From assembly GCA_041665005.1 (NCBI GenBank), contig JBAYJR010000006.1:13309-77308 (forward strand): DNA of 64,000 bases, given 5' to 3'. Each line of letters opens with the position of its first letter. Position 1 is the stretch's first letter. Under the pieces are notes generated by a model, which saw only the letters and a list, made by a program, of their open reading frames with translations, had not been told where the DNA came from and did no database searches. Position numbers and translations under genes: made by a program. This DNA is from Candidatus Buchananbacteria bacterium. GTDB lineage: Bacteria; Patescibacteriota; Patescibacteriia; 2-01-FULL-39-33; JBAYJR01. Of the stretch, positions 3,224 through 57,882 are shown in pieces.

Positions 3224-3391
3224 AAAATAATAAAACCCTGATACTTGTCAGGGGGTTTTGGCTTTAACCCGGCCCCGAAGGGACAAGTCTCCCGATTAAA
3301 AGTGGGAGTTATTTAGTAAGGAGAGTATAACACGGGGTGATTATTACGTCAAGCAGGGGGAATTACTCCCCCTACTTGGCAATTTAGCCAC

Positions 3392-4102
3392 TTAAAAACT
3401 TTGTTGAGCCTGCCTAAAATCAATTCTACCGGAATACAGGGCTTGGCCGACAATTGCTTCTTTAATTCCTAAACGAGTCAAACGTTTAATTTGCGCTAAG
3501 CTAGCAATGCCACCAGAAGCGACTATTGATAAATTAGTTTGCTTAATTAGTTTAGTCAGCAGTTGATAGTTGGGTTGGGTTAAAGTGCCATCGCGCGTAA
3601 TGTCAGTAAAGATTATTTTTTTTATTCCCAGTTCGGTTACTTTTTTTACTAGGTCAAAAATTTTTAGCTGACTTGATTCTAACCAACCCCCGGTCATTAC
3701 TAAATTATTATGGGCATCAATCGCCACCACAATGATTTGGCCATATTTTTGGCTAACCAGTCTAAGTAGTTGAGGATTTTTAATGGCAGCACTGCCTAAG
3801 ATAACATTTTGCGCACCGGCGGCCAGATAAGCTTCAATATCTTTTTTAGTTCTAATGCCACCGCCAACTTGTATGGGAATATTAAGCGTGGCAATAATTT
3901 TTTTGATCAGAGTAAAGTTAGTCGGTCGACCATTTTTGGCACCATCCAGATCTACTAAGTGAATTAGCGTGGCGCCTAGTTTTTGCCAAATCAAGGCTTG
4001 GGCTAGGGGGTCACGATTCACCACGGTTTTTTGCTGATAATTTCCTTGGTATAAACGAACCGCCTGGCCGTTTAAGATATCAATGGCTGGAATAATAGTC
4101 AT
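3392..4102 (-). CDS. hisA: ProFAR isomerase HisA
   Basis: 'MTIIPAIDILNGQAVRLYQGNY...LIHLVDLDGAKNG...IQVGGGIRT' is the HisA signature. Confidence 0.85.
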   Translation of the reverse strand: MTIIPAIDILNGQAVRLYQGNYQQKTVVNRDPLAQALIWQKLGATLIHLVDLDGAKNGRPTNFTLIKKIIATLNIPIQVGGGIRTKKDIEAYLAAGAQNVILGSAAIKNPQLLRLVSQKYGQIIVVAIDAHNNLVMTGGWLESSQLKIFDLVKKVTELGIKKIIFTDITRDGTLTQPNYQLLTKLIKQTNLSIVASGGIASLAQIKRLTRLGIKEAIVGQALYSGRIDFRQAQQSF

Positions 4103-7429: not shown

Positions 7430-9154
7430 ATGGCAACTTTGCCCGAACAATTTTTTGTTACTGCAAAAAAGTTTCCCGATAAAACCGCTTTGAAATACAA
7501 ACAGAGTGGTGCTTATTTGGAATTAACGTTTAATGAATTAGCTAAGCAGATTAAAACCGTAGCCCAGGCTTTGCTAAAATTAGGCCTGAGCCCCACTGAA
7601 AGGGTGGCGGTGTTAGCGCCAAATTGTCCGGAATGGGTAATGCTAGATTTGGGTATAATGTTGGCGGGCGGTATCACGGTGCCAATTCACACCACCTTTA
7701 GCCCCAAATTGATCGCCGGAGTCATAAAAAATTCAAACGCACAGATTTTAGTAGTCTCCACTCAAGAACAGTTAAATAAGATTGGTTTAATCATTTCGGA
7801 GATTCCGCAAGTTAGAAAAATTATTTATTTAAATGCTGATTACCTAAACAATCTGCCCGCTAAGTTGGCTACGGCCTGGGCAGATTTTTTATGTTTAACT
7901 TCAACCGAAACTGTTTGGCCAAAAATTGAAGCGAAAGATATTTGTAGTATTATTTATACTTCTGGCACCACTGGGGAACCTAAGGGTGTAGCTTTAACTC
8001 ACAAAAATTTTTTGAGTGACGCACAGGCTTGTGCGCAGGTAGTGCCGGTCACCAAGGAAGATACTTTGTTATCTTTGTTACCGTTATCTCATGTATTTGA
8101 GCGAACGGCTGGTTATTATACACCATTACTTTTTGCTGGAGCGACCATTGCTTATGCTGAAAGTTTTAAGGAGTTTTCAAAAAATTTACGGGAGGTTAAT
8201 CCGACTATTTTAGTTTCGGTGCCACGAGTTTTTGAAAAGATGCAGGATAGTATTTGGCAAAAGATGCGCCAACGGGGTAAATTTACTTTAAAATTATTTT
8301 ATTGGGCTTTAAAGCAACCTAGCGGCAGTGTGACACAATGGTTGGCTGAACTGTTGATTTTAAAAAAGATTAGAAAGGCTTTAGGGACTAATTTTCGGTT
8401 TGCGATTGCCGGAGGTTCGGCCTTGAGTTTGCGCCAGGCTAAATTTTTTAATAAAATCGGCTTAGCGGTTTACCAGGGTTATGGCTTAACAGAAGCTTCA
8501 CCGGTTGTCGCCACTAATTATCCGGCTCAGCAGGAGCGGGGCACCGTCGGCAAGGCTTTGCCGGGGGTAGAAATAAAAATTGCTAATGACAAAGAAATTT
8601 TAGTGCGAGGACCTAACGTCATGAAGGGTTATTGGGAAGACGACGAGGCGACCAGGGAAGCGCTTGATGAACAAGGATATTTGCATACGGGTGATTTAGG
8701 CCACTTAAGTAATCAGGGCTATTTAACAATTATTGGTCGTAAAAAAGAAATGATTGTTACCGCCGGTGGTAAAAATTTTTGGCCGGAAATTTTGGAGGAA
8801 AAATTAAACGAAACCAAATATATTTCTCAAACCATGGTGATTGGGAATAACCGCAAGCATCTAGCCGCGTTGATTGTGCCAGATTGGATTAATTTAAAAC
8901 GTTACCTGCAAGAAAATAAAATTGAAGTGCCACAAGATGAGATTTTGAATCAGCCGTCAGTGTTGCAACTTTATCGTCAAAACATTAATACGGCCACCCA
9001 GTATTTGGCGGAATATGAAAAAATTATTAAATTCGTTTTAGTGGTTAATGAGTTTACTCAGGAACGGGAAGAATTAACCCCAACTTTAAAATTGCGTCGG
9101 TCGGTGATTGCTACGCATTATAAAAAAGAAATTGAGCAAATGTATTTTGAGTAA
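7430..9154 (+). CDS. Long-chain fatty-acid--CoA ligase (AMP-binding superfamily)
   Basis: 574 aa. AMP-binding motif 'YTSGTTGEPKGV', 'GYGLTE', 'YLHTGDLG...GRKKEMI'. Confidence 0.85.
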   Translation: MATLPEQFFVTAKKFPDKTALKYKQSGAYLELTFNELAKQIKTVAQALLKLGLSPTERVAVLAPNCPEWVMLDLGIMLAGGITVPIHTTFSPKLIAGVIKNSNAQILVVSTQEQLNKIGLIISEIPQVRKIIYLNADYLNNLPAKLATAWADFLCLTSTETVWPKIEAKDICSIIYTSGTTGEPKGVALTHKNFLSDAQACAQVVPVTKEDTLLSLLPLSHVFERTAGYYTPLLFAGATIAYAESFKEFSKNLREVNPTILVSVPRVFEKMQDSIWQKMRQRGKFTLKLFYWALKQPSGSVTQWLAELLILKKIRKALGTNFRFAIAGGSALSLRQAKFFNKIGLAVYQGYGLTEASPVVATNYPAQQERGTVGKALPGVEIKIANDKEILVRGPNVMKGYWEDDEATREALDEQGYLHTGDLGHLSNQGYLTIIGRKKEMIVTAGGKNFWPEILEEKLNETKYISQTMVIGNNRKHLAALIVPDWINLKRYLQENKIEVPQDEILNQPSVLQLYRQNINTATQYLAEYEKIIKFVLVVNEFTQEREELTPTLKLRRSVIATHYKKEIEQMYFE

Positions 9155-10546: not shown

Positions 10547-12711
10547 ACAGCTTTACAATTTCTTGCATTTTGACTTCGCTTATAAGTTTTTTAATGGGCG
10601 TCTTTGTTTATGCAAAAAATAAGGCTAGAACTAATCGTATTTGGTTTTGGCTTTCCATGGTTATTTCTTTTTGGAGTATTGGCTTATGGGGCGTGGTTGC
10701 CAGTCAAACTCCGGAAAATGCTATGCTTTGGCAATATGTTTTAGACTTCGGAGCAATTTTTATTGCCCCGCTTTACCTACATTTTATTTTAGCTTTATTA
10801 AGCCTAAACAAGGAAAAAAGAAAGATTATTATTGCTTGTTATGGTTTTAGCATTGTTTTATTTTTATTGAGTTTTACTGGCTTATTTAAAATTGGCATGA
10901 AGCCAATTTTCGGGTTTAGTTATTGGATAGAACCTGGTCCGCTTTATTTTTTATTTCCCCTGGCTTTTTTGGTATTCATTTTTTATTCAATTTTTTTAAT
11001 TATAAAATTTTATTATAAAGTTTCCGGTTATAAGAGGCAACAACTTAGGTATGTTTTATTAGCCGGAGTAGTTGGTTTTTCCGGTGGTTTGACTGACTTT
11101 TTTCCACAACTAATTAAATTTTATCCCATTGGTAACTACTTTATTGTTTTTTATGTAGCTTTTATTGCTTATGCTATTACTCGTTATCGTTTAATGGAAA
11201 TAAAAACTATTATTAAACGTTCTACAGTGTTTGGTGTTTTGGTGGTAGTAATCGCCAGTGCTTACACCTTATTAGCCATTTATTTAACAGGATTTTTGGA
11301 AGTATTTGTAGGCACTAACTCAGTAGTAGTAACTGGTTTAATTACCGCCGTGTTAGTAGTACTAGTTTTTCAGCCATTAAAAAATTGGTTACAAAAAGTT
11401 ACGGATCGGTTTTTATTCGTTGGGGCATATGAACCAGCGGTATTATTGGCTAAAGTTAATGAAATCTGTAGTTCTATTTTAAATTTAGATCAGCTATTAA
11501 CTTCCCTGGTTCAGGTAGTAAAGGATAATCTTAGAACTAGTAATTTAGCAGTTTTATTGTTAGATAAAAAGAAACAACTAGCGATAGCTAAAAAAGATGG
11601 TTGGCCTAAAGAGTTTGATAAATTTATTGCGGGTAAGGAAAAAATGTTGCCGTTATATTTTAAAAATAGCCGGGAAATTTATATTATTCCGGAATTAAAG
11701 GCTCGGTATGAAAGCGGTGATTATCAACCTAAAGACGCAACTTTTTTGTATGAGCTGGATGAATTGAACGTTAGTCTAATTGTGCCTTTATTTACTCATG
11801 AGAATTTAATTGGTGTTATTGTTTTTGGGCCCAAAAAATCCGGCGATCCATATTCGCAAGAAGACTTAAACACCTTAGGTATTATTGCCGGTCAGGCAGC
11901 GATTGCAATTACGAATACGGAATTATATGAAGAGCAACGAGGGTTCGCGGTTAAGCTACAAAAGGAAGTAGAAAAAGCCACGGCAGAGTTACGGGCGGCT
12001 AATGCCGAGTTAAAAAAGTTGGATGAAGCTAAGTCGGATTTTATTTCCATTGCTTCGCATCAGTTACGTACTCCGTTAACGGTGATCAAAGGTTACGGTT
12101 CTATGATTAAAGAGGGGAGTTTTGGTAAGGTGCCGAAAAAAATTATGGAGGTGGTGGGTAAAATGTATATTTCTAACGATCGTCTAATTGATTTGGTGGA
12201 AAATTTGTTAAATATTTCCCGGATTGAAAGCGGTCGGCTAGAGTTTAATTTAGAAAAAATGGATTTAGCAGATTTAGCTAAAGAAGTATTTGAAGAATTA
12301 TCGCAAAAAGCAGCGGCTAAAAAATTGGATTATCAATTGTCAGTAGAAAAAAAATTGCCGCCAATTATGGCGGATCGCAATCGCTTACACGATGTGGTTA
12401 GTAATTTAATTGATAATGCCATTAAATATACGCCTAGTGGTCAGGTTAAGGTGTTTGCTAGATTAGAACAGGGGCAAGTTTTGTTTGAGGTGATTGATAC
12501 TGGTTCGGGTGTGGATCCTAAAGATTTGCCACATTTATTTCAAAAATTTACTCGCGGTCAGGGGGCATTTCAAATTCATACCGAAGGTGTGGGGCTGGGG
12601 TTGTATGTCGCCAAAATGATGATGGATAAAATGCAAGGCAAAATTTGGGCCGAAAGTGCGGGTTTGAATAAAGGTAGTCGGTTTGTGTTTACTATTCCAC
12701 CGAGTAAGTAA
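10543..12711 (+). CDS. Sensor histidine kinase (multi-TM N-terminal domain, GAF, HisKA, HATPase)
   Basis: 722 aa. About 7 predicted TM helices, a GAF-like middle, H-box 'IASHQLRTPLT', N-box 'LIDNAIKYT', G-boxes 'DTGSGV' and 'GVGLGL'. No response regulator is adjacent. Confidence 0.85.
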   Translation: MNSFTISCILTSLISFLMGVFVYAKNKARTNRIWFWLSMVISFWSIGLWGVVASQTPENAMLWQYVLDFGAIFIAPLYLHFILALLSLNKEKRKIIIACYGFSIVLFLLSFTGLFKIGMKPIFGFSYWIEPGPLYFLFPLAFLVFIFYSIFLIIKFYYKVSGYKRQQLRYVLLAGVVGFSGGLTDFFPQLIKFYPIGNYFIVFYVAFIAYAITRYRLMEIKTIIKRSTVFGVLVVVIASAYTLLAIYLTGFLEVFVGTNSVVVTGLITAVLVVLVFQPLKNWLQKVTDRFLFVGAYEPAVLLAKVNEICSSILNLDQLLTSLVQVVKDNLRTSNLAVLLLDKKKQLAIAKKDGWPKEFDKFIAGKEKMLPLYFKNSREIYIIPELKARYESGDYQPKDATFLYELDELNVSLIVPLFTHENLIGVIVFGPKKSGDPYSQEDLNTLGIIAGQAAIAITNTELYEEQRGFAVKLQKEVEKATAELRAANAELKKLDEAKSDFISIASHQLRTPLTVIKGYGSMIKEGSFGKVPKKIMEVVGKMYISNDRLIDLVENLLNISRIESGRLEFNLEKMDLADLAKEVFEELSQKAAAKKLDYQLSVEKKLPPIMADRNRLHDVVSNLIDNAIKYTPSGQVKVFARLEQGQVLFEVIDTGSGVDPKDLPHLFQKFTRGQGAFQIHTEGVGLGLYVAKMMMDKMQGKIWAESAGLNKGSRFVFTIPPSK

Positions 12712-21376: not shown

Positions 21377-24316
21377 ATGACTGAGAAAAAATCAATTATT
21401 GCTTTGCAGGAAGAAGCCATTTTAGAGCAGTGGCAAAGTAAAAATATTTTTGCTAAAACCTTGGCCAAAGAGGCGCCGCAAGGTAGTTTTGTTTTTTTTG
21501 AAGGCCCACCGACGGCTAATGGTAAACCCGGCATCCATCACATTGAAGCGCGAGCTTATAAGGATGTGGTTTTGCGCTATAAAACCATGCAGGGTTTTAA
21601 AGTTGAGCGTAAGGCTGGTTGGGACACACATGGTTTGCCGGTAGAATTACAGGTGGAAAAAGAATTAGGTATTTCGGGTAAACCGCAAATTGAAAATTTG
21701 GTGCCAGGGCAAGTTATTGCCAGTATCAAACAGTTTAATGCTAAGTGTAAAGAGAGTGTTTGGTCTTACAAAAATGAATGGGAAGAAATGACCAAACGAA
21801 TTGGTTTTTGGCTTGATTTGGCCGACCCTTATGTTACTTATCAAAATGAATTTATTGAATCGGTTTGGTGGTTTATTAAGCAGGCGGCGGAAAAGGATTT
21901 GTTGTATAAAGGTTTTAAGGTAGTACCTTATTGTGCTCGGTGTGGCACAACGCTGTCTTCGCATGAAGTTGCGCAAGGTTATCAAAACATTAAAGAAAAT
22001 TCGGTTTATTTAAAATTTAAAATTACAGCGGCACAAGACAAAGAATTAATTGGGGCCAGTTTATTGGTTTGGACTACTACGCCTTGGACCTTGCCGGGTA
22101 ATTTGGCGTTGGCGGTAGGGAAGGATATCGAATATATAAAGGTAAAAAGGTTTACTGGCGAGTGGGATAAAAATGGTAAGGCTATTTATGATCAAGTTAT
22201 ATTAGCAAAAGAAATATATAAAGAATTAGAAAAAGACCCTGCTTTATTAAGGGCTCGGCCATTTAATTTTCTTTTTACGGAAACTCCTGAAGGTTATGAG
22301 GTTACTTCAATTCCAGAAATTTTAGGAACTTTTAGAGGTTCTGATTTAATTGGCACCGAATATCAGCCTTTGTTTAATGAATATGAAAATAATGGCCAAT
22401 ATTTTAAAGTTTATGCCGGTGATTTTGTTAGTACCACTGATGGCACGGGCATTGTGCATATTGCGCCACATTTTGGTGAAGATGATTTTAGTCTATTTGC
22501 TGCCAATAATTTAGTAGTACCAGAAAGAATTACGGTTGATGGTGAAGGAAAATTGCAAGCCAAGGTACCTGGTCAGGGCAAATTTGTTAAAGAGGCTGAT
22601 CCAGAAATTATTGAAGAATTAAAAGCCAAAAATATTTTGTTTAAAGTTGAGCCACATGCTCACGATTATCCTTTTTGTTGGCGTTGCAATACTCCATTAT
22701 TATATTACGCTCGCACCTCTTGGTTTATTCGCGTCTCCGCTTTACGCTCGGAGTTAAACAAAAATAATGAACAAATTAATTGGCACCCCGATTATTTAAA
22801 AGCCGGTCGGTTTGGTGAGTGGTTAAAAGAGGCCAAAGATTGGGCAATTTCTCGTGAACGTTATTGGGGCACGCCATTGCCAATTTGGGAATGTGTTTCT
22901 TGTAAAAAATATAAAGTAATTGGTAGCGCTCAAGAATTGTTACAGCCCTTAGACGATTTACATCGACCGTTTATTGATGAGGCTACCTTTAAATGTGAAT
23001 GTAGTGGTGAGATGAAAAGAGTGCCAGAAGTGTGCGATGTTTGGATGGACTCGGGTTGCATGCCTTTTGCGCAATGGGGTTATCCGGCCAAAAGTGGTAG
23101 CGCGGAGCAATTTAAAAAATTCTATCCGGCAGATTATATTGCCGAAGGCATTGATCAGACGCGCGGTTGGTTTTATACCTTGTTAACGGTGGCCACCATT
23201 TTAGGTTTTGACCCACCTTATAAAAATGTTTTAGCGGTGGGAATTATTTTAGACAAACAAGGTAAAAAAATGTCTAAATCCAAAGGTAATACTATAGAGC
23301 CGTGGTTTATTGCTGATAAATATGGCGTAGATGCTTTGCGTTATTATTTATACACCGTTAACCAATGTGCTGATTCTAAAAATTTTGATGAGAAAGATGT
23401 AGATCTAGTAGTTAAAAAAGTTATTTTGATTGCTAAAAATGTTGTTTCATTTTATAAATTATTTGCGAACAACACGCCGCAAACTTTACCGGTAGATTTA
23501 GCGGTGTTGGATCAATGGATTTTGTCACGTTTACAAGTATTAATTAAATCCGTGACGGAAAAGTTTGAATTATATCAATTAACTGATAGCCATCGAGAAA
23601 TTGGGGAGTTTATTAATGATTTGTCAACTTGGTATATTCGTCGTTCGCGCGAACGATTTAAGGGCGAAGGCAAGATTTCTGCTCAGGCAACTTTACGTGA
23701 GGTATTATTACAGCTCAGTAAATTATTAGCCCCAGGTTTACCATTTTTAGCGGAAGAAATTTATCAAGCCGTTGGCGGTCAGCTAGAATCAGTCCACCTA
23801 GAAACTTGGCCAGAAGTGAAGTTAGAATTAATTGATGAAAAATTAATAACTGAAATGGCACAGGCCAGAACCGATGTGGAAAAAGGCCTAGCTTTGCGCG
23901 CCGAGGCTAATCTTAAAGTGCGTCAGCCGTTAACTTCATTTACTTCACCTAATAATTATCAGCCAGAGATTAAAGAAATTTTAGCCCAAGAGTTAAATGT
24001 CTTAGAAATTATTAAGGGTGCTGATTACGCCATTGATACTAATTTAACCCCGGAATTAAAACAGCAAGGCTTGTTGCGCGAACTGGTTAGGCAAATTAAT
24101 ACTTTACGTAAAGAACTGAAATTAACTATTCAGGATCAAGTAACCCTTCAGTGGCAGACGGCTGATCAGGGATTATTAGAATTATTAGGCAATAAAGAAT
24201 TTAGAGAGCAACTGGCTAAAAATGTTTTAGCTAATGAAATAATTGAACAAGCCAATGAGGGAGTAGAATTAAAGGTTAACGAGTTAAGTGTTAAAATTAA
24301 GTTGGAAAAAGTTTAA
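21377..24316 (+). CDS. ileS: Isoleucine--tRNA ligase
   Basis: 979 aa. 'PPTANGKPGIHH' (HIGH), 'KMSKSKGN' (KMSKS), zinc-binding Cys cluster 'CARCGT...CWRC'. Confidence 0.92.
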   Translation: MTEKKSIIALQEEAILEQWQSKNIFAKTLAKEAPQGSFVFFEGPPTANGKPGIHHIEARAYKDVVLRYKTMQGFKVERKAGWDTHGLPVELQVEKELGISGKPQIENLVPGQVIASIKQFNAKCKESVWSYKNEWEEMTKRIGFWLDLADPYVTYQNEFIESVWWFIKQAAEKDLLYKGFKVVPYCARCGTTLSSHEVAQGYQNIKENSVYLKFKITAAQDKELIGASLLVWTTTPWTLPGNLALAVGKDIEYIKVKRFTGEWDKNGKAIYDQVILAKEIYKELEKDPALLRARPFNFLFTETPEGYEVTSIPEILGTFRGSDLIGTEYQPLFNEYENNGQYFKVYAGDFVSTTDGTGIVHIAPHFGEDDFSLFAANNLVVPERITVDGEGKLQAKVPGQGKFVKEADPEIIEELKAKNILFKVEPHAHDYPFCWRCNTPLLYYARTSWFIRVSALRSELNKNNEQINWHPDYLKAGRFGEWLKEAKDWAISRERYWGTPLPIWECVSCKKYKVIGSAQELLQPLDDLHRPFIDEATFKCECSGEMKRVPEVCDVWMDSGCMPFAQWGYPAKSGSAEQFKKFYPADYIAEGIDQTRGWFYTLLTVATILGFDPPYKNVLAVGIILDKQGKKMSKSKGNTIEPWFIADKYGVDALRYYLYTVNQCADSKNFDEKDVDLVVKKVILIAKNVVSFYKLFANNTPQTLPVDLAVLDQWILSRLQVLIKSVTEKFELYQLTDSHREIGEFINDLSTWYIRRSRERFKGEGKISAQATLREVLLQLSKLLAPGLPFLAEEIYQAVGGQLESVHLETWPEVKLELIDEKLITEMAQARTDVEKGLALRAEANLKVRQPLTSFTSPNNYQPEIKEILAQELNVLEIIKGADYAIDTNLTPELKQQGLLRELVRQINTLRKELKLTIQDQVTLQWQTADQGLLELLGNKEFREQLAKNVLANEIIEQANEGVELKVNELSVKIKLEKV

Positions 24317-24325
24317 GTAATATTT

Positions 24326-25399
24326 ATGCCCCAACTTTGCCCCGAACTTACTACCAAACTAGAAATTCTTAAACAACTCAAGCAACAGTTTGATTTGGAA
24401 TTAACCAAAGTCAAAAATCTAGACCCTAAAAAGTCTAATGACCTTATTTCCATCAGAGACTTTAAAGCCAAACTAAACCAAACCCTCCAAGATCTCCAAA
24501 ACGAACTCTGGCTAGAAACCCCCGAACTAACCCAAGAAAACCTTAAAGCCCAATATGAAGCCCAAGTAGACCTTCTCCGTAAAAACAACCTCCTTAAAAC
24601 CCTCGCCACTGGTGAATTAGGCATTGAAGCAATTGATAAGCAAGAATACCCTATACCCACCCTAGAACAGATTGAAAAAATGATGCTAGAAGAACCAGAA
24701 TTCTTTAAAACCAAAATCAATCAAGGTTTTGTTAAGCTAGTCCTTGTTCCCTTTGGTTCACCAATAAGTTCTCTAATAGAAGCTTATGACAAGGCTCTAA
24801 TGGAACATCATCAGCAAGGTGAACTATTAGACACCCAAAATAAACCTTTGGGGCTTAATAAAGGGATTGGTGAAAAGTTTATTTTTGATAATGCTGAATT
24901 GGTAGAGGCTGAAGCTACAGGAGAATTAGTCTATTTTCCCAAAGAATTCTCTAAAACTACTCATCAAGGTAAAACCAAACAAGAACTTTTACCAACCCAA
25001 GCTTGGCAAGTCCTACTACTTGAAGACTTGCCTGATCTTCGAGATAAAGGTCAAGGTAAAACCGTTAATGGTCGTAAGCAACTAGGAGCCAACCAATCAC
25101 CCAATGGCTATCTTAAACAACTTCAAACGGATCAATATAAAGGTGAACAAGGTTTAACTCCAGAATCCTGGCTAGTTTACGGCTTAGGTCATTTAGAACA
25201 AACCAACCAAATGATTGAGGGCGGGGAAAGTAAGTATGATTATAGGGGTTGTTTTTTGGTTGGTGGTTATTTTAAAAAAACTGGCAGCGTGCCGAGTGCT
25301 TTTTCCGACCGTGGTCGTGCGCAGATCTACTTGGATCGGAATGCTTCGGGCCTTCCCATTTCCTTCCGTGCCGGCCGTTTCTCGGTGAGCATTTCTTGA
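24326..25399 (+). CDS. Paralog family member A (unknown function, hypervariable C-terminal tail)
   Basis: 357 aa starting MPQLCPELTTKLE. Over 90% nucleotide identity to copy B across the first about 330 nt. C-rich codon usage. Ends ...GRFSVSIS. Confidence 0.75.
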   Translation: MPQLCPELTTKLEILKQLKQQFDLELTKVKNLDPKKSNDLISIRDFKAKLNQTLQDLQNELWLETPELTQENLKAQYEAQVDLLRKNNLLKTLATGELGIEAIDKQEYPIPTLEQIEKMMLEEPEFFKTKINQGFVKLVLVPFGSPISSLIEAYDKALMEHHQQGELLDTQNKPLGLNKGIGEKFIFDNAELVEAEATGELVYFPKEFSKTTHQGKTKQELLPTQAWQVLLLEDLPDLRDKGQGKTVNGRKQLGANQSPNGYLKQLQTDQYKGEQGLTPESWLVYGLGHLEQTNQMIEGGESKYDYRGCFLVGGYFKKTGSVPSAFSDRGRAQIYLDRNASGLPISFRAGRFSVSIS

Positions 25400-25404
25400 T
25401 TTTT

Positions 25405-25434
25405 TTGTCATTCCGGACTTGATCCGGAATCTAG
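25405..25434 (+). repeat. 'ttgtcattcc-ggacttgatcc-ggaatc' hairpin repeat (copy between the tandem paralogs)
   Basis: Same 'gtcattcc...ggaatc' stem motif as at 14676, 50419 and 51887. Confidence 0.6.
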
Positions 25435-25454
25435 GTTATATCTTAGATAAATTT

Positions 25455-26537
25455 ATGCCCCAACTTTGCCCAGAACTTACTACCAAACTAGAATCCCTTA
25501 AAACGCTTAAACAACAGTTTGATTTGGAATTTATTAAAATTAAAAAGTTAGGCTCTAAAAAGTCTAATGACCTTATTTCCATCAGAGACTTTAAAGCCAA
25601 ACTAAACCAAACTCTCCAAGACCTCCAAAATGAACTCTGGCTAGAAACCCCCGAACTAACCCAAGAAAACCTTAAAGTTCAATATGAATTCCAGAAAGAT
25701 GTTCTTATTAAGGCTGGCCTCCTGAAAACCCTCTCTACTGGCGAATTAGGTATTAAAGCAATTAATAACAAAGAATACCCGATACCCACCCTAGAACAGA
25801 TTGAAGAAATGATGCTAGAAAAACCAGAATTTTTTAAAACTAAAATTAATCAGGGCTTTATTAAACTAATTATGGTTCCCTTTGGCTTACCAATAAGTTC
25901 CCTAATAGAGGCTTATGACAAGGCTCTTATGGAACATCATCAGCGAGGTGAGCTGCTAGACACCCAAAATAAACCATTGGGGCTTAATAAAGAGATTGGT
26001 AAAAAGTTTATTGATGATGATCAGGCTAAACATTATGTCCAAGCCGAAGCCACAGGGGACTTAGTATATTTCCCCCAAAAATTCTCTAAAACTGCTCATC
26101 AAGGTAAAACCAAACAGGAACTTTTGTCCACTCAAGCTTGGCAGGTTCTATTGCTTGAAGACCTACCCAACCTTCCAGATCAAGGTCAAGGTAAAATCAT
26201 AGCTAATCGCGAGCAACCAGAAGCCAGTCGATCACCAAATAGTTATCTTAAACAACTCCAAATCGACCTTCAATATGAAGGTGAACAAGGTTTAACCCCA
26301 GAATCCTGGTTAGTTTATGCCCTAAACCATTTAGCCCAAACTAATAAAGTGATTGGAAGCGGGGAAAGTAAGTATGGTTATATGGGCTGTTTTTTGCTTA
26401 ATAGTTTTTTTAAAGAATCTGGCAGCGTGCCGGGCACCTATTTCCGCTGTGGTAGTGCACAGGTCGATTTGGATCAGTATGCTCCGAATCATCCCTATTC
26501 CAACTATGCCGGCCGTTTTTTGGTGAGTATTATTTGA
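25455..26537 (+). CDS. Paralog family member B
   Basis: Start refined to ATG 25455 (MPQLCPELTTKLESLK...). The track ORF begins at 25419 with a non-ATG start. Ends ...GRFLVSII. Confidence 0.75.
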   Translation: MPQLCPELTTKLESLKTLKQQFDLEFIKIKKLGSKKSNDLISIRDFKAKLNQTLQDLQNELWLETPELTQENLKVQYEFQKDVLIKAGLLKTLSTGELGIKAINNKEYPIPTLEQIEEMMLEKPEFFKTKINQGFIKLIMVPFGLPISSLIEAYDKALMEHHQRGELLDTQNKPLGLNKEIGKKFIDDDQAKHYVQAEATGDLVYFPQKFSKTAHQGKTKQELLSTQAWQVLLLEDLPNLPDQGQGKIIANREQPEASRSPNSYLKQLQIDLQYEGEQGLTPESWLVYALNHLAQTNKVIGSGESKYGYMGCFLLNSFFKESGSVPGTYFRCGSAQVDLDQYAPNHPYSNYAGRFLVSII

Positions 26538-26594
26538 TCTTTGGTTTTTGATTTTATTTTTGTTTTTTGACTTTAGACCTTAGTTTTTATTTTT

Positions 26595-27206
26595 TTGAAT
26601 TTAAAATTTATATCTATGATTGCCTACCTCAAGGGAAAAATTTTAGTGCTTAAACCTTCTACCAAAAAGGATAGTTTTATTATTTTGGAAGTTAATGGGG
26701 TGGGTTACGAAATAATGTGTCCGCCTCAGTTGTTGGTTAAACGTAAATTGGGCGAAGAAGTAGAAATTTATACTTATCACAGTGTGCGGGAAGATAATCA
26801 AGAACTATTTGGTTTAAGTAGTTTGGAAGATTTGGAATTTTTTAAATTGTTGTTAACCGTTTCCGGGATTGGTCCACGCTCGGCTTTAAGTGTTATGTCG
26901 GCGGCTACGCGGGAACAAATTAAAAAAGCAGTGGTGCAAAATCAGCCGGATCTATTGCATAAAATTTCTGGTCTAGGCGCCAAGACTGCTCAAAAAGTGG
27001 TGGATGGTCTTAAAGATAAGCTAGGGGTAGAAGAACTTGGTCGGGGCGAAGGCTTTGATGACGACTTTGCTCAGGCTTTGGACGGTTTACTAGCTTTAGG
27101 TTATAATCTGTTTGATGCTAGAAAAGCTTTGGAAAAAACCTCGGCCATTAGCGGGGCGTCTAGTAAAATTAAGGAAGCATTAAAAAGGTTGAGTAATAGA
27201 AATTAA
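26595..27206 (+). CDS. ruvA: Holliday junction branch-migration complex subunit RuvA
   Basis: 203 aa. 'MIAYLKGKI', OB domain, HhH pairs 'LLTVSGIGPRSAL' and 'ISGLGAKTAQKV', C-terminal domain III. Confidence 0.88.
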   Translation: MNLKFISMIAYLKGKILVLKPSTKKDSFIILEVNGVGYEIMCPPQLLVKRKLGEEVEIYTYHSVREDNQELFGLSSLEDLEFFKLLLTVSGIGPRSALSVMSAATREQIKKAVVQNQPDLLHKISGLGAKTAQKVVDGLKDKLGVEELGRGEGFDDDFAQALDGLLALGYNLFDARKALEKTSAISGASSKIKEALKRLSNRN

Positions 27207-27257
27207 TAAAAAGCTTGTGCTCGTCGTTTAATTAGTTATCCGCCTGCCATTACCTGT

Positions 27258-27329
27258 GCCCTCATCGTTCAGTGGATAGGACACCAGATTCCGGATCTGG
27301 CAACAGAGGTTCGAGTCCTCTTGAGGGCA
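27258..27329 (+). tRNA. tRNA-Arg (anticodon CCG)
   Basis: Folded by hand. Acceptor gccctca/tgagggc, D-arm gttc-agtggata-ggac, anticodon arm ccaga-ttCCGga-tctgg, variable caac, T-arm agagg-ttcgagt-cctct, discriminator A. No encoded CCA. Confidence 0.85.
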
Positions 27330-27345
27330 AAGGCAACGGCAGGCG

Positions 27346-27562: not shown

Positions 27563-28210
27563 TTAGGTTAAGAGTCGCTTGGTTGTTTCTAAAACTTTTT
27601 TAAAAATTTCTTCTTTGGTTTGACCAGCATCTATTTTTAGATACGGTCCAGCTGATAAAGAAGGGTTGGCGAGGAAATTAGCAAAACCCTTTCTGACTTG
27701 TTGGTGAAAAGCCAGGCCTTCACTTTCTAAACGATCTAAAGGTAGATTAGGGTTTTTGCGGGCAAAGGCAATTTTGGGGTCAAGATCTAACCAAAAAGTG
27801 AAATGTGGCACTAAACTGCGGGTAACAAAATTATTCAATTGAATAAATTCGTCTTTAGTACAGGCTTTGCGAGCGATGCATTGATAGGCGTAGCTATCCA
27901 TGTTATAGCGATCACAAATGACGATTTTTCCCGCTTCCAAATTAGGAATAATTGTTTGATCGATGTGTTGGGCGCGGTCAGCTAGATAAAGCAAGAGTTC
28001 GGCGCGTCCGGTTAAGATGATTCCTGGGAAAGGGGTTAACAGTAATTGGCGAATTTTTTGGCAGTAATTAAGATCACCGCCCGGTTCTTTGGTCAAGATA
28101 GTATTTCGACCATTTTTTAATAGCCACTCGTGTAATAATTGGGCTTGGGTGGTCTTGCCGCAGCCTTCACCACCGGTAAAGACTAAAAATAAACCTGGCT
28201 TGTTTGACAT
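27563..28210 (-). CDS. tmk: Thymidylate kinase
   Basis: Start refined to the internal ATG at 28210, which has a GGAGG Shine-Dalgarno site 7 nt upstream. 'LFLVFTGGEGCGKTTQ' P-loop, 'DRY' motif. A terminator hairpin overlaps the stop codon. Confidence 0.85.
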   Translation of the reverse strand: MSNKPGLFLVFTGGEGCGKTTQAQLLHEWLLKNGRNTILTKEPGGDLNYCQKIRQLLLTPFPGIILTGRAELLLYLADRAQHIDQTIIPNLEAGKIVICDRYNMDSYAYQCIARKACTKDEFIQLNNFVTRSLVPHFTFWLDLDPKIAFARKNPNLPLDRLESEGLAFHQQVRKGFANFLANPSLSAGPYLKIDAGQTKEEIFKKVLETTKRLLT

Positions 28211-28307
28211 GATTTTACCTCCTAAGATTGTTGTCAGTAAATTATCACGTTGCTGCAGTCGTGTCAAATAAATTGAAAAAGTTAAGCAAATAAGCTATAG
28301 TAGTGGT

Positions 28308-30691: not shown

Positions 30692-30784
30692 TGGAGCGGG
30701 AGAAAGGAGTCGAACCTTCGGCTTTTTGGTCGTCTAATTGTTTAGACAGAGAACCAAATACTCTACCCACTGAGTTACCCCCGC
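30692..30784 (-). tRNA. tRNA-like gene (Gly-like acceptor/discriminator U73, encoded CCA) with a 24-nt anticodon-loop region containing a 17-nt hairpin insertion
   Basis: Reverse complement: gcggggg-ta-actc-agtgggta-gagt-a-tttgg-[ttctctgtctaaacaattagacga]-ccaaa-aagcc-gaagg-ttcgact-ccttt-ctcccgc-t-cca. All arms canonical except the loop. If an insert is spliced out, one reading gives loop ttCTCga. Confidence 0.6.
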
Positions 30785-30789
30785 TTTGT

Positions 30790-30864
30790 TGGAGCGTATA
30801 GGATTTGAACCTATTATCTCTTGCTTGAAAGGCAAGCGCTTATCCTGATTTCAGCTTACGCTCC
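30790..30864 (-). tRNA. tRNA-Glu (anticodon UUC)
   Basis: Reverse complement: ggagcgt-aa-gct-gaaatcaggata-agc-g-cttgc-ctTTCaa-gcaag-agata-atagg-ttcaaat-cctat-acgctcc-a. Confidence 0.8.
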
Positions 30865-30890
30865 ATCGGAAATAATAGCTTTAATAAATT

Positions 30891-30966
30891 TGGTGAAGCG
30901 TATAGGATTTGAACCTACAACCTCTTTCTTTGCAAGAAAGGGCTCAACCAGTTGAGCTTACGCTTC
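30891..30966 (-). tRNA. tRNA-Cys (anticodon GCA), CCA encoded
   Basis: Reverse complement: gaagcgt-aa-gctc-aactggtt-gagc-c-ctttc-ttGCAaa-gaaag-aggtt-gtagg-ttcaaat-cctat-acgcttc-a-cca. The discriminator is A (the E. coli Cys identity element U73 is not present). Confidence 0.75.
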
Positions 30967-50812: not shown

Positions 50813-51688
50813 TTAGCGAGTTAGTTGTGCTAACTCCTGTTTGGTGTGTTTCCGGCTTGTTCTGGCCGGAATTTTTACACCACGCCCTTTAGCGTTGGTG
50901 AGGGGGATTTTTTTCCCTTTTGCTTTCGCTTTGGGAGTGGCGACAATAATTTCTTCCGGATCAGGTTCGTCGGTCGTTACCATGGCAACTTCGTCAGTTG
51001 CCAAAGTGGTGACCGTAATCATCGGTTCCGGTGCCGGTTTTTCGATTGGGGCCGGGGCATTGTACCCCGGGATTTCGATATGGAAAGTCTCGTGACCTTC
51101 CAACTCTTTTTGCCAGTTTGCTTTGGAAAGCATTTCCTGGACTTTGGCGACGGCTTTTTTTGCCGCGACCTTGGTTGCCGGATCGGGGATCCGGTCAATT
51201 TCGTTCCAGTTTCCAACCAACACTTCGCCGGATTGTTGGTGGAGATACATTGGCTTTATTTCAACCATTTTTTCGCCGGTGCTGCGAACAGCACTGGCGG
51301 TTACCAGAGAGTAATCTCTGGCAAACGGTGTCGCCGATGCGACGGTGAATTGGAGGACACCGTGTTCAAAACGTCCTTCCGGTTGAGTTTTGATGCAGTA
51401 ATGATACTGCACCCTGTCCACTTGATTTTTAATATTTTTTATTTCTGTGATGACCCAGGAAAGGTCATCGGGGTTGTCACCTTTGACGGTGACAAATAAG
51501 TTTCCGCTGGCTTTGTCAAGCCAGGAGAACATTTGCGGAAGTCGGCGGTTTGCCTCTAACTGAAAAAAGTTTTCCAGATTTCCCTCTGGTTTGAGGGAAA
51601 TCGCCACTGCCGCATGGCAGTGGATAAAAGTCATCCAGGCTTCATAGCCTGGTTGACCTTTCTTTTTGGGATATACACGGGTAAACAT
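50813..51688 (-). CDS. Hypothetical 291-aa protein encoded in a GC-rich (about 50%) island, with a basic Lys/Arg-rich C-terminus
   Basis: Shine-Dalgarno 'aaggagggtaaact' before ATG 51688. No recognisable catalytic motif. Tail 'KAKAKGKKIPLTNAKGRGVKIPARTSRK'. Several overlapping spurious ORFs in other frames reflect the high GC. Confidence 0.6.
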   Translation of the reverse strand: MFTRVYPKKKGQPGYEAWMTFIHCHAAVAISLKPEGNLENFFQLEANRRLPQMFSWLDKASGNLFVTVKGDNPDDLSWVITEIKNIKNQVDRVQYHYCIKTQPEGRFEHGVLQFTVASATPFARDYSLVTASAVRSTGEKMVEIKPMYLHQQSGEVLVGNWNEIDRIPDPATKVAAKKAVAKVQEMLSKANWQKELEGHETFHIEIPGYNAPAPIEKPAPEPMITVTTLATDEVAMVTTDEPDPEEIIVATPKAKAKGKKIPLTNAKGRGVKIPARTSRKHTKQELAQLTR

Positions 51689-51968: not shown

Positions 51969-53018
51969 TTAAAGAATACTCACCGCAAAACGAACAGAAT
52001 CATCAGAGCTGGGATCGCCCGGAGTGCTCTGATACAAATCAACCGTCTCACTGTCACGGCTGAAATCGGCGTCTGGCACACTGCTAGATTTAAAATAGCT
52101 ATTAAGTAAACAACAAGCCTTACCCGAGCCTTGCCAGTCATCAATCACTTGATCGGTTTGGGTTAGATGAGTTAGGGCATAAACTAGCCAGGATTCTAGG
52201 GTTAAACCTTGCTCACCTTTATATTGAGGGTCAGTTTGGAGTTGTTTAAGATAGTCATTGGGTGATTTATTAGCTTCTGGTTGTTTACGACCAGCTAAAA
52301 CTTTGCCCTTTCCTTCACCTGGAAGATCAGGCAAGTCTTCAAGTAACAGGACTTGCCAGGCTTGGGTGGCTAGGAGTTGTTTTTTAGTTTTACCTTGATG
52401 AGTAGTTTTAGAGTATTCTTGAGGGAAATATACTAAATATCCTTTAGCTTCAGCCTTGGCGCATCCAAACCAATCATTGATAGGTTCTTCCCTAAGTCTT
52501 AAAGGTTTATCTTGAGTGTCCAAGAGTTTACCTTGTTGATGGTGTTTGGTTAAGGAGTTGCCATAGGCCTTAATTAGAGAATCTAGAGGCAAGCCAAAGG
52601 GGACAATGATTAGTTTAACAAAGCCTTGATTAATTTTGGTTTTCAAGAACTCTTTGTTTTTTAACATTTTATTCTCAATCTGTTCTAGGGTGGGTATCGG
52701 GTATTCTTGGTGGTTAATTGCCTCAATACCCAATTCGCCAGTGGCGAGGGTTTTAAGGAGGTTGGTTTTACGGAGGAGGTCTACTTGGGCTTCATATTGG
52801 GCTTTAAGATTTTCTTTAGTTAGTTCGGGGGTTTCTAGCCAGAGTTCGTTTTGGAGTTCTTGGAGAGTTCGTTCTAATCTAAATTTAACAACCCTAATAA
52901 ACATCAGATCGTCTGACTTACCTGTTTGAGGCAAACTGGCTAATTCTTGATTGAACGTTTGTTTCAGTTGTTTGAGGGACTCTAATTCACTGGTGAGTCT
53001 TTGGCAGGATTGGGACAT
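51969..53018 (-). CDS. Paralog family member C (inverted, about 27 kb from A/B)
   Basis: 349 aa. About 70-75% aa identity to A/B through the body ('LWLETPELT.ENLKAQYEAQVDLLRK.NLLKTLATGELGIEAI', 'KTKINQGFVKLI.VPFG', 'HQGKTK', 'TQAWQVLLLEDLPDL', 'ESWLVY'). Divergent tail ending ...VRFAVSIL. Confidence 0.75.
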   Translation of the reverse strand: MSQSCQRLTSELESLKQLKQTFNQELASLPQTGKSDDLMFIRVVKFRLERTLQELQNELWLETPELTKENLKAQYEAQVDLLRKTNLLKTLATGELGIEAINHQEYPIPTLEQIENKMLKNKEFLKTKINQGFVKLIIVPFGLPLDSLIKAYGNSLTKHHQQGKLLDTQDKPLRLREEPINDWFGCAKAEAKGYLVYFPQEYSKTTHQGKTKKQLLATQAWQVLLLEDLPDLPGEGKGKVLAGRKQPEANKSPNDYLKQLQTDPQYKGEQGLTLESWLVYALTHLTQTDQVIDDWQGSGKACCLLNSYFKSSSVPDADFSRDSETVDLYQSTPGDPSSDDSVRFAVSIL

Positions 53019-56961: not shown

Positions 56962-57882
56962 TTGATTATGAAAAAAAGGATATTTTTGATGGTAACTCTA
57001 GCCGTAATGATTTTTTTGCCAACTAAAGTTTGGGGGATTACTCTGGCTCCGGCCACTTTGGAGTTAAAAGTAGCGGCTGGTCAAAGCCAGGAGTTTAAAA
57101 TTAAGTTGTTTAATGAAGAGGATAAAACCGTATTTTTACTAGCGAGTTTAAAAAAATTTGTTAGCCAGGGTACAGAGGGGTCGGCTAAAATTTTAGTCAC
57201 CACGGCGCAAGATGAATATTTAAATTGGTTTAATTTGCCGGGCCGCTATACTAAGTTAGCGCCTGGTGAAATGCAAGAAATTACTTTAAAAATTAGTATT
57301 CCGGCCAAAGCCGCACCAGCCGAATATTTTCCGGTGCTGGCCTGGCAAACTTTGACCGGAACAAATTCCGGGGATAATTTAGCAGTTTCGTCTGAGGTTG
57401 GCACCTTAATTTTTTTACAAATAACAGGCCCTAAGGAAGAAAAGTTGAGTCTACAAAATTTTTCTTTACCTACTAAGCAACAAATACTCTGGTCTTGGCC
57501 TAAAAAGTTTTTAGTGCAAGTTCAAAATGAAGGCAATATTCATCTAGTACCACAAGGGAATATTAAACTGGCTGGTTATTGGCAGAAAACCCCATTAATT
57601 TTAGCGGTTAATGAAGGTCAAGGAAAAATTTTGCCCAACAGTCAACGAGTCTATGAGGTTTTTTTGCCTCAGCGTAGTAGTTCAATGCTGGCTAGCTTAA
57701 AAAAGTTTTTAGTAATTGGTAAATATCAAGCCACTTTAAATTTAACTTATGGCGAAACGAATAAAAGTTTGACTCAGATGATTAATTTTTGGGTAATTTC
57801 TTGGCCAGCGGTCAGCTTGTTTGGGGTGTTACTAATTATTTTAGGTTATAATCTAATTAAATTTAATGCCAAAAGACAATAA
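56962..57882 (+). CDS. Secreted protein with C-terminal membrane anchor
   Basis: Signal peptide, beta-rich body, C-terminal TM 'ISWPAVSLFGVLLIILGYNLI' + KR. Confidence 0.5.
   Translation: MIMKKRIFLMVTLAVMIFLPTKVWGITLAPATLELKVAAGQSQEFKIKLFNEEDKTVFLLASLKKFVSQGTEGSAKILVTTAQDEYLNWFNLPGRYTKLAPGEMQEITLKISIPAKAAPAEYFPVLAWQTLTGTNSGDNLAVSSEVGTLIFLQITGPKEEKLSLQNFSLPTKQQILWSWPKKFLVQVQNEGNIHLVPQGNIKLAGYWQKTPLILAVNEGQGKILPNSQRVYEVFLPQRSSSMLASLKKFLVIGKYQATLNLTYGETNKSLTQMINFWVISWPAVSLFGVLLIILGYNLIKFNAKRQ

Follow-up and report, generated by a model that had tools for sequence, protein, structure and literature searches.

Three genes of Candidatus Buchananbacteria are probable archived members of a diversity-generating retroelement target family

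What kind of protein is encoded by neighbouring paralogous genes that remain similar along their bodies and differ at most positions of their C-terminal tails? The question is raised by two adjacent genes, A and B, in the 64,000-nt stretch of a Candidatus Buchananbacteria genome that was analysed here (the window). An earlier note had described them, together with a distant copy C, as a three-member family with homogenised 5' halves, C-rich codons and a hypervariable tail, and had offered three readings: surface/antigenic-variation proteins, polymorphic-toxin/effector families, or targets of diversity-generating systems. Our analysis indicates that A, B and C are probably paralogs of a variable-protein family of diversity-generating retroelements (DGRs) of Patescibacteria/CPR, with tails that were written by a DGR and are now archived. 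The genes are as follows.

24326-25399, plus strand: gene A, an open reading frame of 357 aa (family profile E=1.8e-139), identical to NCBI protein WCW02_02980
25455-26537, plus strand: gene B, 360 aa, tandem paralog of A (NCBI WCW02_02985)
51969-53018, minus strand: gene C, 349 aa, distant paralog, 26 kb away (NCBI WCW02_03100)

The coordinates and head-to-tail order of A and B were borne out by the open reading frames, and their setting by profile matches of the upstream neighbour ileS (TIGR00392, 2.5e-258) and the downstream neighbour ruvA (TIGR00084, 9e-47). For gene B, the ATG at 25455 fits the family N-terminus MPQLC; the mechanically called ORF begins at TTG 25419. Gene C is flanked by a 291-aa ORF without assigned function and a DUF6938 protein, and it is identical in a second assembly (ENA, locus L058), which may share its reads with the first. 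At the protein level A and B are 74.7% identical, in agreement with the about 75% given earlier, and A and C 63%.

The supposed family of three has about 20 members in this genome. A homology search returned 96 matches, of which about 20 bear the locus-tag prefix of the same MAG (WCW02_), and an exhaustive search gave 1027 cluster representatives, with the family confined almost entirely to Patescibacteria (Buchanan-, Uhr-, Staskawicz-, Nealson-, Berkel- and Magasanikbacteria). At least 35 copies were counted in an Uhrbacteria genome. Tandem arrays are frequent, with seven copies in a Berkelbacteria locus (L013). The copies in the window stand alone, scattered among housekeeping genes and with no ATPase beside them; an AAA_5 domain is fused to the family domain in five of ten long members. 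All of the approximately 20 copies have an intact frame, equal length and the conserved scaffold V-P...L...P...R-F-x-V-S-I. An IS element or transposase, considered for this multi-copy gene of ~1.1 kb, was rejected: the copies are only 43-75% identical, lack terminal repeats and have a lectin-like fold.

Whether started from single proteins or from the family profile, searches of Pfam, NCBIfam, PADLOC, PHROGs and PDB sequences yielded no match above noise, and at this level the statement that no known domain is recognisable was correct. Foldseek against the PDB returned no significant match. The AlphaFold model of protein A (pLDDT 91.9) predicts an N-terminal helical hairpin of ~65 residues, an alpha/beta region and a C-type-lectin-like C-terminal domain. 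This last domain fits the C-type-lectin / FGE-sulfatase fold, one of the marks by which DGR target proteins are recognised. The N-terminal modules are located as follows.

24326-24520, plus strand: N-terminal helical-hairpin module of A (~65 residues; helices 4-31 and 37-61 in the model)
25455-25649, plus strand: equivalent module of B
52824-53018, minus strand: equivalent module of C

In this organism the module also stands at the N-terminus of WD40 propeller proteins and of proteins of 241-250 aa; its dN/dS between A and B is 0.20. The variable region comprises the last ~36 codons ahead of the conserved R-F-x-V-S-I end, and the model places beta strands in the tail at high confidence. A McrC-like nuclease, suggested by the AAA_5 fusions, was dropped in view of the fold and of the template repeat/variable region (TR/VR) pairs described below.

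Neither a signal peptide nor a hydrophobic N-terminus nor a TM segment was found in the A, B and C proteins, which appear to act inside the cell as soluble binders or sensors. An exchange of C-terminal cassettes within a surface antigenic-variation or polymorphic-toxin family would agree with the multiple copies, the variable C-termini and the recombination between copies, but is extremely improbable here. Apart from the missing export signals, the window holds three full-length copies and no partial or silent C-terminal cassettes, and the tail varies by point differences within a fixed-length scaffold rather than by swaps of unrelated modules. Nor are there toxin or immunity domains, and the gene after B is ruvA. 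The surface reading of the earlier note is thereby set aside, as is the toxin/effector reading: what varies is no toxin module but the predicted binding face of a C-type-lectin-like fold.

The third reading was addressed through related loci, of which four (L006, L029, L011 and L022) are textbook DGR cassettes. VR/TR pairs of 112-117 nt with 81-87% identity were present in each of them, with two targets in L011. The TR-VR mismatches fall at template adenines and elsewhere in the ratios 20/1 (L006), 16/0 (L029), 15/0 and 16/0 (the two targets of L011) and 18/0 (L022). Genes for bAvd (PF22296, 3e-11) and an RVT_1 reverse transcriptase (RT; 8e-18) adjoin the target cassettes of the relatives, an AAA_5 (MoxR-like) gene adjoins the target in L011 and L029, and a vWA protein of ~720-750 aa is encoded beside the target gene, TR, Avd and RT. 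With a single exception in L006 the mismatches of these homologs are adenine-only, and for the family as a whole the reading as targets of diversity-generating systems was right; the earlier note had suggested a search for an RT with an A-rich template repeat.

The A, B and C tails run collinear with the VRs and TRs of these relatives, and the TR-encoded peptides align with them free of gaps. The corresponding zones and their adenine content are given below.

25277-25384, plus strand: VR-equivalent zone of A (residues 318-353), adenine 0.13 vs 0.37 in the body, GC 0.58
26415-26522, plus strand: VR-equivalent zone of B, adenine 0.18 vs 0.36 in the body
51984-52091, minus strand: VR-equivalent zone of C, adenine 0.20 vs 0.35 in the body

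In all three zones the third codon base is a pyrimidine at a frequency of 0.75, compared to 0.52 in the body, and GC reaches 0.52-0.58 compared to 0.39. Active VRs of the relatives show the same pattern of composition, with adenine at 0.09-0.13. Codon by codon, A, B and C agree at eight of the last 34 positions, exactly as had been reported; the shared residues are L, P, S, R, F, V, S and I, and the terminal R-F-x-V-S-I is retained. Tail columns in which the TRs of relatives encode Asn have an entropy of 2.80, against 1.45 in the others (P=2e-5). Across 20 paralogs, K, E, Q, M or W occupies 39 of 436 cells of the hypervariable tail columns, where 120 were expected (P=3e-22), and 152 of 499 cells in equally variable columns of the body. 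This depletion, and an enrichment of Y, S, D, N and G, could partly be due to selection for binding-site composition. Between A and B, the last 60 codons differ at 20 first, 16 second and 9 third codon positions, whereas in the body the order is reversed. The fingerprint of adenine mutagenesis, that is, adenine depletion, NNY codons and changes at positions 1 and 2, is present in the tails of A, B and C; its compositional part is lost in the divergent copies P0019 and P0024, where adenine stands at 0.28-0.30.

The earlier note had linked an equal rise of synonymous divergence in the tail to simple relaxed constraint. No such rise was seen between A and B, where dS is 0.28 and dN/dS is 1.42 in the tail compared to 0.20-0.23 in the body. 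Against C, tail dS is high as well (1.2-1.3 for A-C and B-C); these values are saturated, so the dN/dS of 0.4 found there is by itself no sign of positive selection. The high dS against C and the composition of P0019 and P0024 would be consistent with the decaying C-terminus of redundant duplicates, yet decay is a very improbable explanation for tails that keep frame, length and scaffold in all of the ~20 copies, are modelled confidently as beta strands and change preferentially at codon positions 1 and 2.

The similarity between A and B outside the tails proved to be a mosaic. The first 330 nt, described as nearly identical, share 85% of their nucleotides compared to 81% in the remainder, and 93% identity is reached only at nt 91-225 (nt 1-90: 84%). 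Two tracts stand out.

24416-24550, plus strand: most similar tract of A and B (gene nt 91-225, 93% nucleotide identity), which holds the longest identical run of 58 nt (permutation P=0.002)
24506-24595, plus strand: codons 61-90 of A, a gene-conversion or recombination tract in which A groups with C and not with its neighbour B

Within codons 61-90, 18 informative sites join A with C and four join A with B, and the identities are 94% (A/C) and 79% (A/B), a pattern that marks a gene-conversion or recombination tract. Gene conversion between copies, as had been proposed, was supported by a permutation test (P about 0.002). A homogenised 5' half with a divergent tail in a family of three is too simple a description of this mosaic among ~20 members; the 5' similarity of A and B reflects a common N-terminal module together with patchy gene conversion. 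Directly 3' of the stop codon, A and C have TCATTCCGSACTTG in common.

The following minor features lie in or beside gene A.

24313-24720, minus strand: antisense ORF of 135 aa, mechanically called, overlapping gene A
25193-25411, minus strand: antisense ORF, mechanically called, overlapping gene A
25410-25430, plus strand: 8-bp hairpin ATTCCGGA-cttga-TCCGGAAT in the A-B spacer (DNA fold -7.7 kcal/mol)

An excess of C at third positions, noted earlier, is real (C 0.20-0.22 and G 0.11-0.13 in A and B, compared to C 0.10-0.12 and G 0.20-0.24 in the plus-strand neighbours), but it is not peculiar to the family: it is the composition typical of the minus-strand genes of the window, here found in two plus-strand genes. 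Both antisense ORFs exist as reported and are by-products of the composition of gene A; as genes they were rejected since they overlap one with strong homology support. The hairpin is also present. The spacer, however, measures 55 nt and not 20, and the hairpin occurs once in the window and is therefore not a repeat. It is probably incidental; a role as a DGR target-recognition cruciform found no support, as active targets of the relatives have no hairpin at that place. In sum, the description in the earlier note is confirmed in part, namely for the genes, the tail and the third-position C, and fails for the homogenised 5' half, the three-member family, the 20-nt spacer and the hairpin repeat; its interpretation is likewise supported in part, for DGR targets and gene conversion and not for a surface antigen or toxin/effector.

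The retroelement itself was sought in the window and in 145.8 kb of DNA of this organism; loci were retrieved by exact match to the proteins P0013, P0017, P0020, P0011 and P0024 and to one protein of the window. Six-frame profile searches and tblastn detected no RT or Avd in the 145.8 kb, and no AAA_5 or vWA homologs were found there; the window has none of these genes either. An adenine-tolerant sliding scan of the window for a TR, and likewise blastn-short, recovered only the paralogs themselves; the further loci of the organism contained no TR, and neither RT nor TR was located within 10 kb of any of the 12 copies examined. Among the best 120 of 3444 database RT matches, none carried the WCW02_ tag, and a metagenome scan with protein A gave no match. 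Since the reachable DNA contained no TR, RT or Avd, we infer DGR authorship of the A, B and C tails from homology and the mutational fingerprint rather than from a TR/VR pair.

Could the tails have diversified without any retroelement, by point mutation under strong diversifying selection on a binding surface, with gene conversion homogenising the remainder of the gene? An A-B tail dN/dS above 1, the mosaic similarity among the copies and the lack of an RT or TR in the reachable DNA are all compatible with such a history. We nevertheless regard it as improbable because it leaves unexplained why the columns that vary are those at which the relatives' TRs have Asn codons, why the pyrimidine third base and a two- to three-fold adenine depletion occur exactly in the VR-homologous zone, and why non-NNY residues are missing only in the tail.

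At least one of A, B and C, with A as the best candidate, might instead be an active target of a DGR elsewhere in the genome and still be rewritten. The VR zone of A is as low in adenine as the active VRs of the relatives, and the part of the genome that was inspected amounts to ~146 kb. Non-phage DGRs are known to have targets that lie more than 100 kb away from the RT (PMC5758913), and several DGR loci are common in CPR genomes (PMC10907252). Targets rewritten from one TR would, however, match at third positions, and within the VR zones many of these differ between A, B and C, C/T differences included (A-B dS 0.28), which counts against active rewriting. The vicinity of the 12 copies, free of RT and TR, speaks against it as well. 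In the Uhrbacteria, only one of 24 tails is pristine, namely that of the TR-adjacent copy; in the others, 61% of the A sites and 16% of the non-A sites deviate from the TR, and adenine content climbs as drift proceeds (rho 0.83) until it reaches values like those of B and C. Active rewriting is possible but unlikely. With no TR, RT or Avd in the 145.8 kb and with their third-position differences, the A, B and C tails look archived and drifting, like those of more than 20 Uhrbacteria paralogs; the copies are most likely archived variants that drift by ordinary substitution and are not all rewritten from one template.

A scheme for archived variants may be outlined. As shown in the relatives, an RT with Avd copies a TR of ~115 nt, with misincorporation at the places that face template adenines; the mutated copy then replaces the variable region, turns Asn (AAY) into NNY codons and alters the ligand-binding face. 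The tails of A, B and C were probably written in this manner, after which the genes would have multiplied through tandem and dispersed duplication, gene conversion would have partly homogenised the 5' and central parts, and the present copies would drift as archived variants. More tentatively, this might amount to a germline archiving of DGR output, in which the retroelement writes one cassette-proximal gene and duplication stores the variants; one DGR that serves ~20 remote targets would be an equally unusual alternative. If the archive is real, 20-35 or more lectin-fold binders, with WD40 binders on the same N-terminal module in addition, would form a standing repertoire, and this V-gene-like repertoire would persist and decay slowly even once the retroelement stops or is lost.

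CPR bacteria, whose genomes are very small, are thought to be host-attached. That 2-3% of the genes belong to a single family of hypervariable binders indicates that recognition, of hosts, phages or other invaders, is an important task, and the occurrence of the N-terminal module on lectin-fold, WD40 and mini proteins alike suggests that all of them dock to a common partner. Some 20 'hypothetical proteins' of the MAG can be labelled as DGR-type C-type-lectin-fold variable proteins, and the same label may be extended to more than 1000 protein clusters without a Pfam or NCBIfam model. The series from pristine to decayed VRs, seen in Uhrbacteria and probably present here, offers a route to study DGR diversity after writing; variants written by a DGR may become fixed, duplicated and kept.

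Compared to known DGR variable proteins, the family likewise carries its VR in the last ~40 codons before a short conserved end, and its homologs have the Asn-rich template, the adenine-specific mutagenesis and the NNY repertoire, of which A, B and C bear the same fingerprint. It differs by the absence of detectable sequence similarity and of Foldseek matches and by its helical hairpin and alpha/beta N-terminal part, and A, B and C by having no cognate TR or RT within 145.8 kb. With the DGRs of CPR/Patescibacteria (RT clade 2 of Roux et al., 2021; Paul et al.) the family has taxa in common, and the AAA_5 fusion or adjacency in relatives agrees with the description of CPR DGRs quoted in PMC10907252 and with passages of PMC8144416; unlike such targets, the window copies are without ATPase and dispersed among housekeeping genes. 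The AAA_5 and vWA neighbours of the relatives resemble the MoxR-vWA ternary conflict systems with DGR-diversified FGS/CLec sensors (Kaur et al., 2020; Dore et al., 2024), which are described mainly in multicellular bacteria. An adjacent pair of MoxR-type ATPase and vWA protein, which defines these systems, was found in the relatives only; no AAA_5 or vWA gene lies near A, B or C or in the 146 kb, and no VMAP or effector peptidase was identified. Dispersed DGR-target paralogs with remnant TR-VR homology are known from cyanobacteria (Vallota-Eastman et al., 2020), and a Treponema DGR has seven non-adjacent targets (PMC7517822, PMC5758913). As in those cases, CLec variable proteins are duplicated and dispersed in the genome, with some copies matched imperfectly to the TR; the present family is set apart by its 20-35 or more copies per genome in a group for which small genomes are expected, by a graded decay series (Uhrbacteria) and by its frequent tandem arrays.

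The window has a GC content of about 38% and represents a Patescibacteria genome with mostly housekeeping content, including argS, ileS, ruvA, tmk, murE, rpoB/rpoC-sized genes, and recA-region genes. Three paralogous genes with hypervariable C-terminal tails are found in it; their VR zones, the parts of the tails collinear with the variable regions (VRs) of relatives, are given alongside.

Genes of the family in the window
Gene A: 24326-25399, + strand; 357 aa, ileS side of the tandem pair; VR zone 25277-25384
Gene B: ATG at 25455, end at 26537, + strand; 360 aa, head to tail with A, ahead of ruvA; VR zone 26415-26522
Gene C: 51969-53018, − strand; third copy; VR zone 51984-52091

A and B are 74.7% identical at the protein and 82% at the nucleotide level, A and C 63% and 74%, respectively. 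The A-B spacer, put at 20 nt with a hairpin repeat in the earlier note, measures 55 nt, and its hairpin (25410-25430) occurs once in the window. The count of 8 positions shared by A, B, and C among the last 34 codons was exact. The near-identity claimed for the first 330 nt of A and B was overstated (85% vs 81% for the rest, with only nt 91-225 at 93%), and the family exceeds the three members assumed. A database search returned 96 relatives, about 20 of which carry the locus-tag prefix of the window's MAG (WCW02_) and share 43-75% identity with A; the remainder are unnamed Patescibacteria proteins. An exhaustive profile search yielded 1027 cluster representatives and placed the conserved core at residues ~70-357, the N-terminal ~65 residues being variable or missing. 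Family genes were located at 55 loci in a scan of species-representative genomes. Uhrbacteria GW2011_GWE2_46_68 has 35 or more different full-length copies, and many of these form tandem pairs or triplets; a Candidatus Berkelbacteria locus (L013:1778-8624) has an uninterrupted tandem array of seven, with a TR-like segment after it at 8510-8624 (TR, template repeat).

Searches of Pfam, NCBIfam, PADLOC, PHROGs, and PDB sequences with the family gave no match. The family is thus unnamed by sequence; the fold is clear at the structure level, with likenesses to the C-terminal domains of Bd2740 and Legionella Lcl, to OvoA/EgtB/SenA, an FGE paralogue and PvdO, and to dozens of animal CTLDs.

At four loci of other Patescibacteria, a full-length family gene is followed by a short family-like fragment. 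The last ~115 nt of the gene and the fragment are 81-87% identical, and nearly all mismatches fall on adenines in the fragment.

TR/VR mismatches at the four loci (at TR adenines; elsewhere)
L006: 20; 1
L029: 16; 0
L011, target 1: 15; 0
L011, target 2: 16; 0
L022 (Uhrbacteria): 18; 0

The peptides encoded by these templates are Asn-rich (..VPNAYWNRDNRQANLNRNDVDNRNDNCGVRSA..). An RVT_1 reverse transcriptase (RT) and a gene resembling bAvd (PF22296) adjoin the templates. Such anatomy and mutational signature (TR/VR pair, adenine-only mismatches, Avd, RT) define a diversity-generating retroelement (DGR). The family homologs are bona fide DGR targets. The observation of the earlier note is confirmed in part, and its interpretation supported in part. 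Searching for an RT with an A-rich template, as it had proposed, was the right test, and one of its three interpretations, a DGR target, held; surface or antigenic variation and polymorphic toxins or effectors did not. The cassettes are flanked by AAA_5 (MoxR-type) ATPase and vWA genes, and in 5 of the 10 long members tested AAA_5 is joined in one protein with the domain of this family.

The RT at L022:11628-12616, in Uhrbacteria GW2011_GWE2_46_68, is present as two overlapping ORFs (11628-12206 and 12158-12616), beside a target whose VR is pristine, with adenine-only mismatches; candidate causes of the split are a frameshift, programmed recoding, and an error in sequencing. Downstream of B, the T-rich 3' flank (GATCTTTGGTTTTTGATTTT, 26538-26575) resembles flanks after the active VRs of relatives (..TTTGATCTTTGGATTC.., ..TTTGATCTTTTGATTC..; L011:10871-10900, L029:3505-3535, L006:7072-7105). 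It could be a target-recognition element or mere T-richness. A and C, unlike B, share TCATTCCGSACTTG after the stop codon.

The tails of the window's organism bear the corresponding fingerprint. The TR-encoded peptides of relatives align gap-free with the last ~40 residues of 20 same-genome paralogs, and TR-Asn columns coincide with the hypervariable ones (mean entropy 2.80 vs 1.45 elsewhere, P=2e-5). The 22 hypervariable tail columns comprise 436 cells, of which 39 hold residues that NNY codons do not specify (K, E, Q, M, W); the proteins' own composition would predict 120 (P=3e-22), and equally variable body columns have 152 of 499. Differences between A and B in the last 60 codons number 20, 16, and 9 at codon positions 1, 2, and 3, whereas the body differs most at position 3; dN/dS (Nei-Gojobori) is 1.42 in the VR zone, 0.20 in the N-terminal module, and 0.23 in the core. 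Base composition follows that of the active VRs of relatives.

Base composition (VR zones of A/B/C; bodies; active VRs of relatives)
Adenine: 0.13-0.20; 0.35-0.37; 0.09-0.13
GC: 0.52-0.58; ~0.39; 0.57-0.69
Third codon base pyrimidine: 75%; 52%; 0.59-0.72

From homology and this fingerprint, rather than from a TR/VR pair, we conclude that the tails of A, B, and C were probably written by DGR-type adenine mutagenesis.

No RT and, in an adenine-tolerant scan, no TR was found in the window. ENA assembly ERZ27249449 contains the same organism: its locus L058 matches the window at 100% identity across 16 kb. This assembly and one Logan contig gave five further loci with nine further copies. Homologs of RT, Avd, TR, AAA_5, and vWA were absent from the total of 145.8 kb of this organism, where family copies stand singly or in tandem amid housekeeping genes. 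The best 120 of 3444 matches in an RT search of a large database bear neither way on an RT in the WCW02_ MAG. Third codon positions in the VR zone vary between copies (A-B dS 0.28; many C/T differences across 10 copies), which argues against rewriting of all copies from one template, since repeated homing would reset every non-adenine site. Of the 24 distinct tails in the Uhrbacteria genome, the one next to the TR alone is pristine, with 18 mismatches at A sites and none at non-A sites; the remaining tails differ at 61% of the TR's A sites and 16% of its non-A sites, and their adenine rises from 0.07-0.09 to 0.20-0.25 with growing non-A drift (Spearman rho 0.83, P=5e-7). On this scale, the values of A (0.13), B (0.18), and C (0.20) correspond to moderate to clear drift, and the three are therefore most likely archived DGR-written variants. 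That a remote DGR is still active on one of them, A first, is a less likely alternative.

As a portable module, the ~65-residue N-terminus (MPQLCPELTTKL.., invariant Cys5) is not confined to the family. Other proteins of the same organism, WD40 beta-propellers and 'mini' proteins of 241-250 aa, begin with it and directly adjoin full-length copies (L056:959-2203 and 3281-4024; L057:7446-8615; L060:9088-9990 and 11092-11817; L061:3415-4602 and 11100-11852). It looks like a docking module carried on different binder domains. A, B, and C resemble one another in a mosaic pattern. The longest stretches of identity measure 58 nt (A/B), 38 nt (A/C), and 34 nt (B/C), each with a permutation P of about 0.002, and at codons 61-90 informative sites group A with C (18) rather than with B (4). 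A conserved module plus patchy gene conversion explains this better than the homogenised 5' halves proposed earlier.

Third positions in the window follow a replication-strand skew (plus-strand genes G>C, minus-strand genes C>G), yet A and B, on the plus strand, carry the minus-strand signature when 24326-26537 is set against neighbours (e.g. 21377-24316, 26595-27206, 27563-28267). Along the window, GC skew is clearly negative in the 24-26 kb bin alone and about zero in the 48-50 kb bin. The minus-strand signature of A and B fits a recent arrival, or conversion from oppositely oriented copies. The C-rich third positions keep antisense frames open, which accounts for both antisense ORFs, as the earlier note had stated. 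Homologs of ileS and/or ruvA also adjoin family genes at three loci of other Patescibacteria (L019, L039, L049; cf. window 21377-27206), so that one or more copies may be old and syntenic instead of newly inserted.

Beside C, a 291-aa ORF (50813-51688, − strand) has a GC content of 0.49 against a background of ~0.38, no Pfam match, and a low-complexity C-terminus rich in Lys/Ala/Pro. After two small secreted-looking proteins, a 1492-aa protein is encoded at 57866-62344 (+ strand), with precomputed Pfam matches that include Hom_end_hint, PT-HINT, and Vint (Hint/intein-type) together with PKD repeats. At 30692-30966 (− strand) and 27257-27330 (+ strand), Rfam called four tRNAs and ARAGORN three, omitting 30790-30864; the ARAGORN tRNA-Glu(ctc) at 30692-30784 is unusually long (93 nt).

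No signal peptide or transmembrane segment was found in the family proteins. The variable residues sit in the C-terminal strands of the lectin-like domain, which form the ligand-binding face in Mtd and TvpA. Relatives couple the domain to a MoxR-type ATPase and a vWA protein, and published models assign such proteins a sensor or effector role in NTP-dependent conflict systems (PMC7159879). From these features we infer that proteins of the A/B/C type would be soluble intracellular binders, possibly sensing invading or host molecules.

DGR variable proteins with the CLec fold, the abundance of DGRs in CPR bacteria and their association with AAA-ATPases, and dispersed target paralogs with remnant TR homology are already known. 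Two points go somewhat beyond the literature found, although they may in part be described already (Paul et al. 2017): the copy numbers, about 20 here and at least 35 in the Uhrbacteria genome, in lineages noted for very small genomes, and the graded tail-decay series, which points to duplication and archiving of DGR output. The AAA_5 and vWA neighbours of relatives and the AAA_5 fusion agree with published statements that MoxR-vWA conflict systems employ DGR-diversified FGS/CLec domains (PMC7159879).
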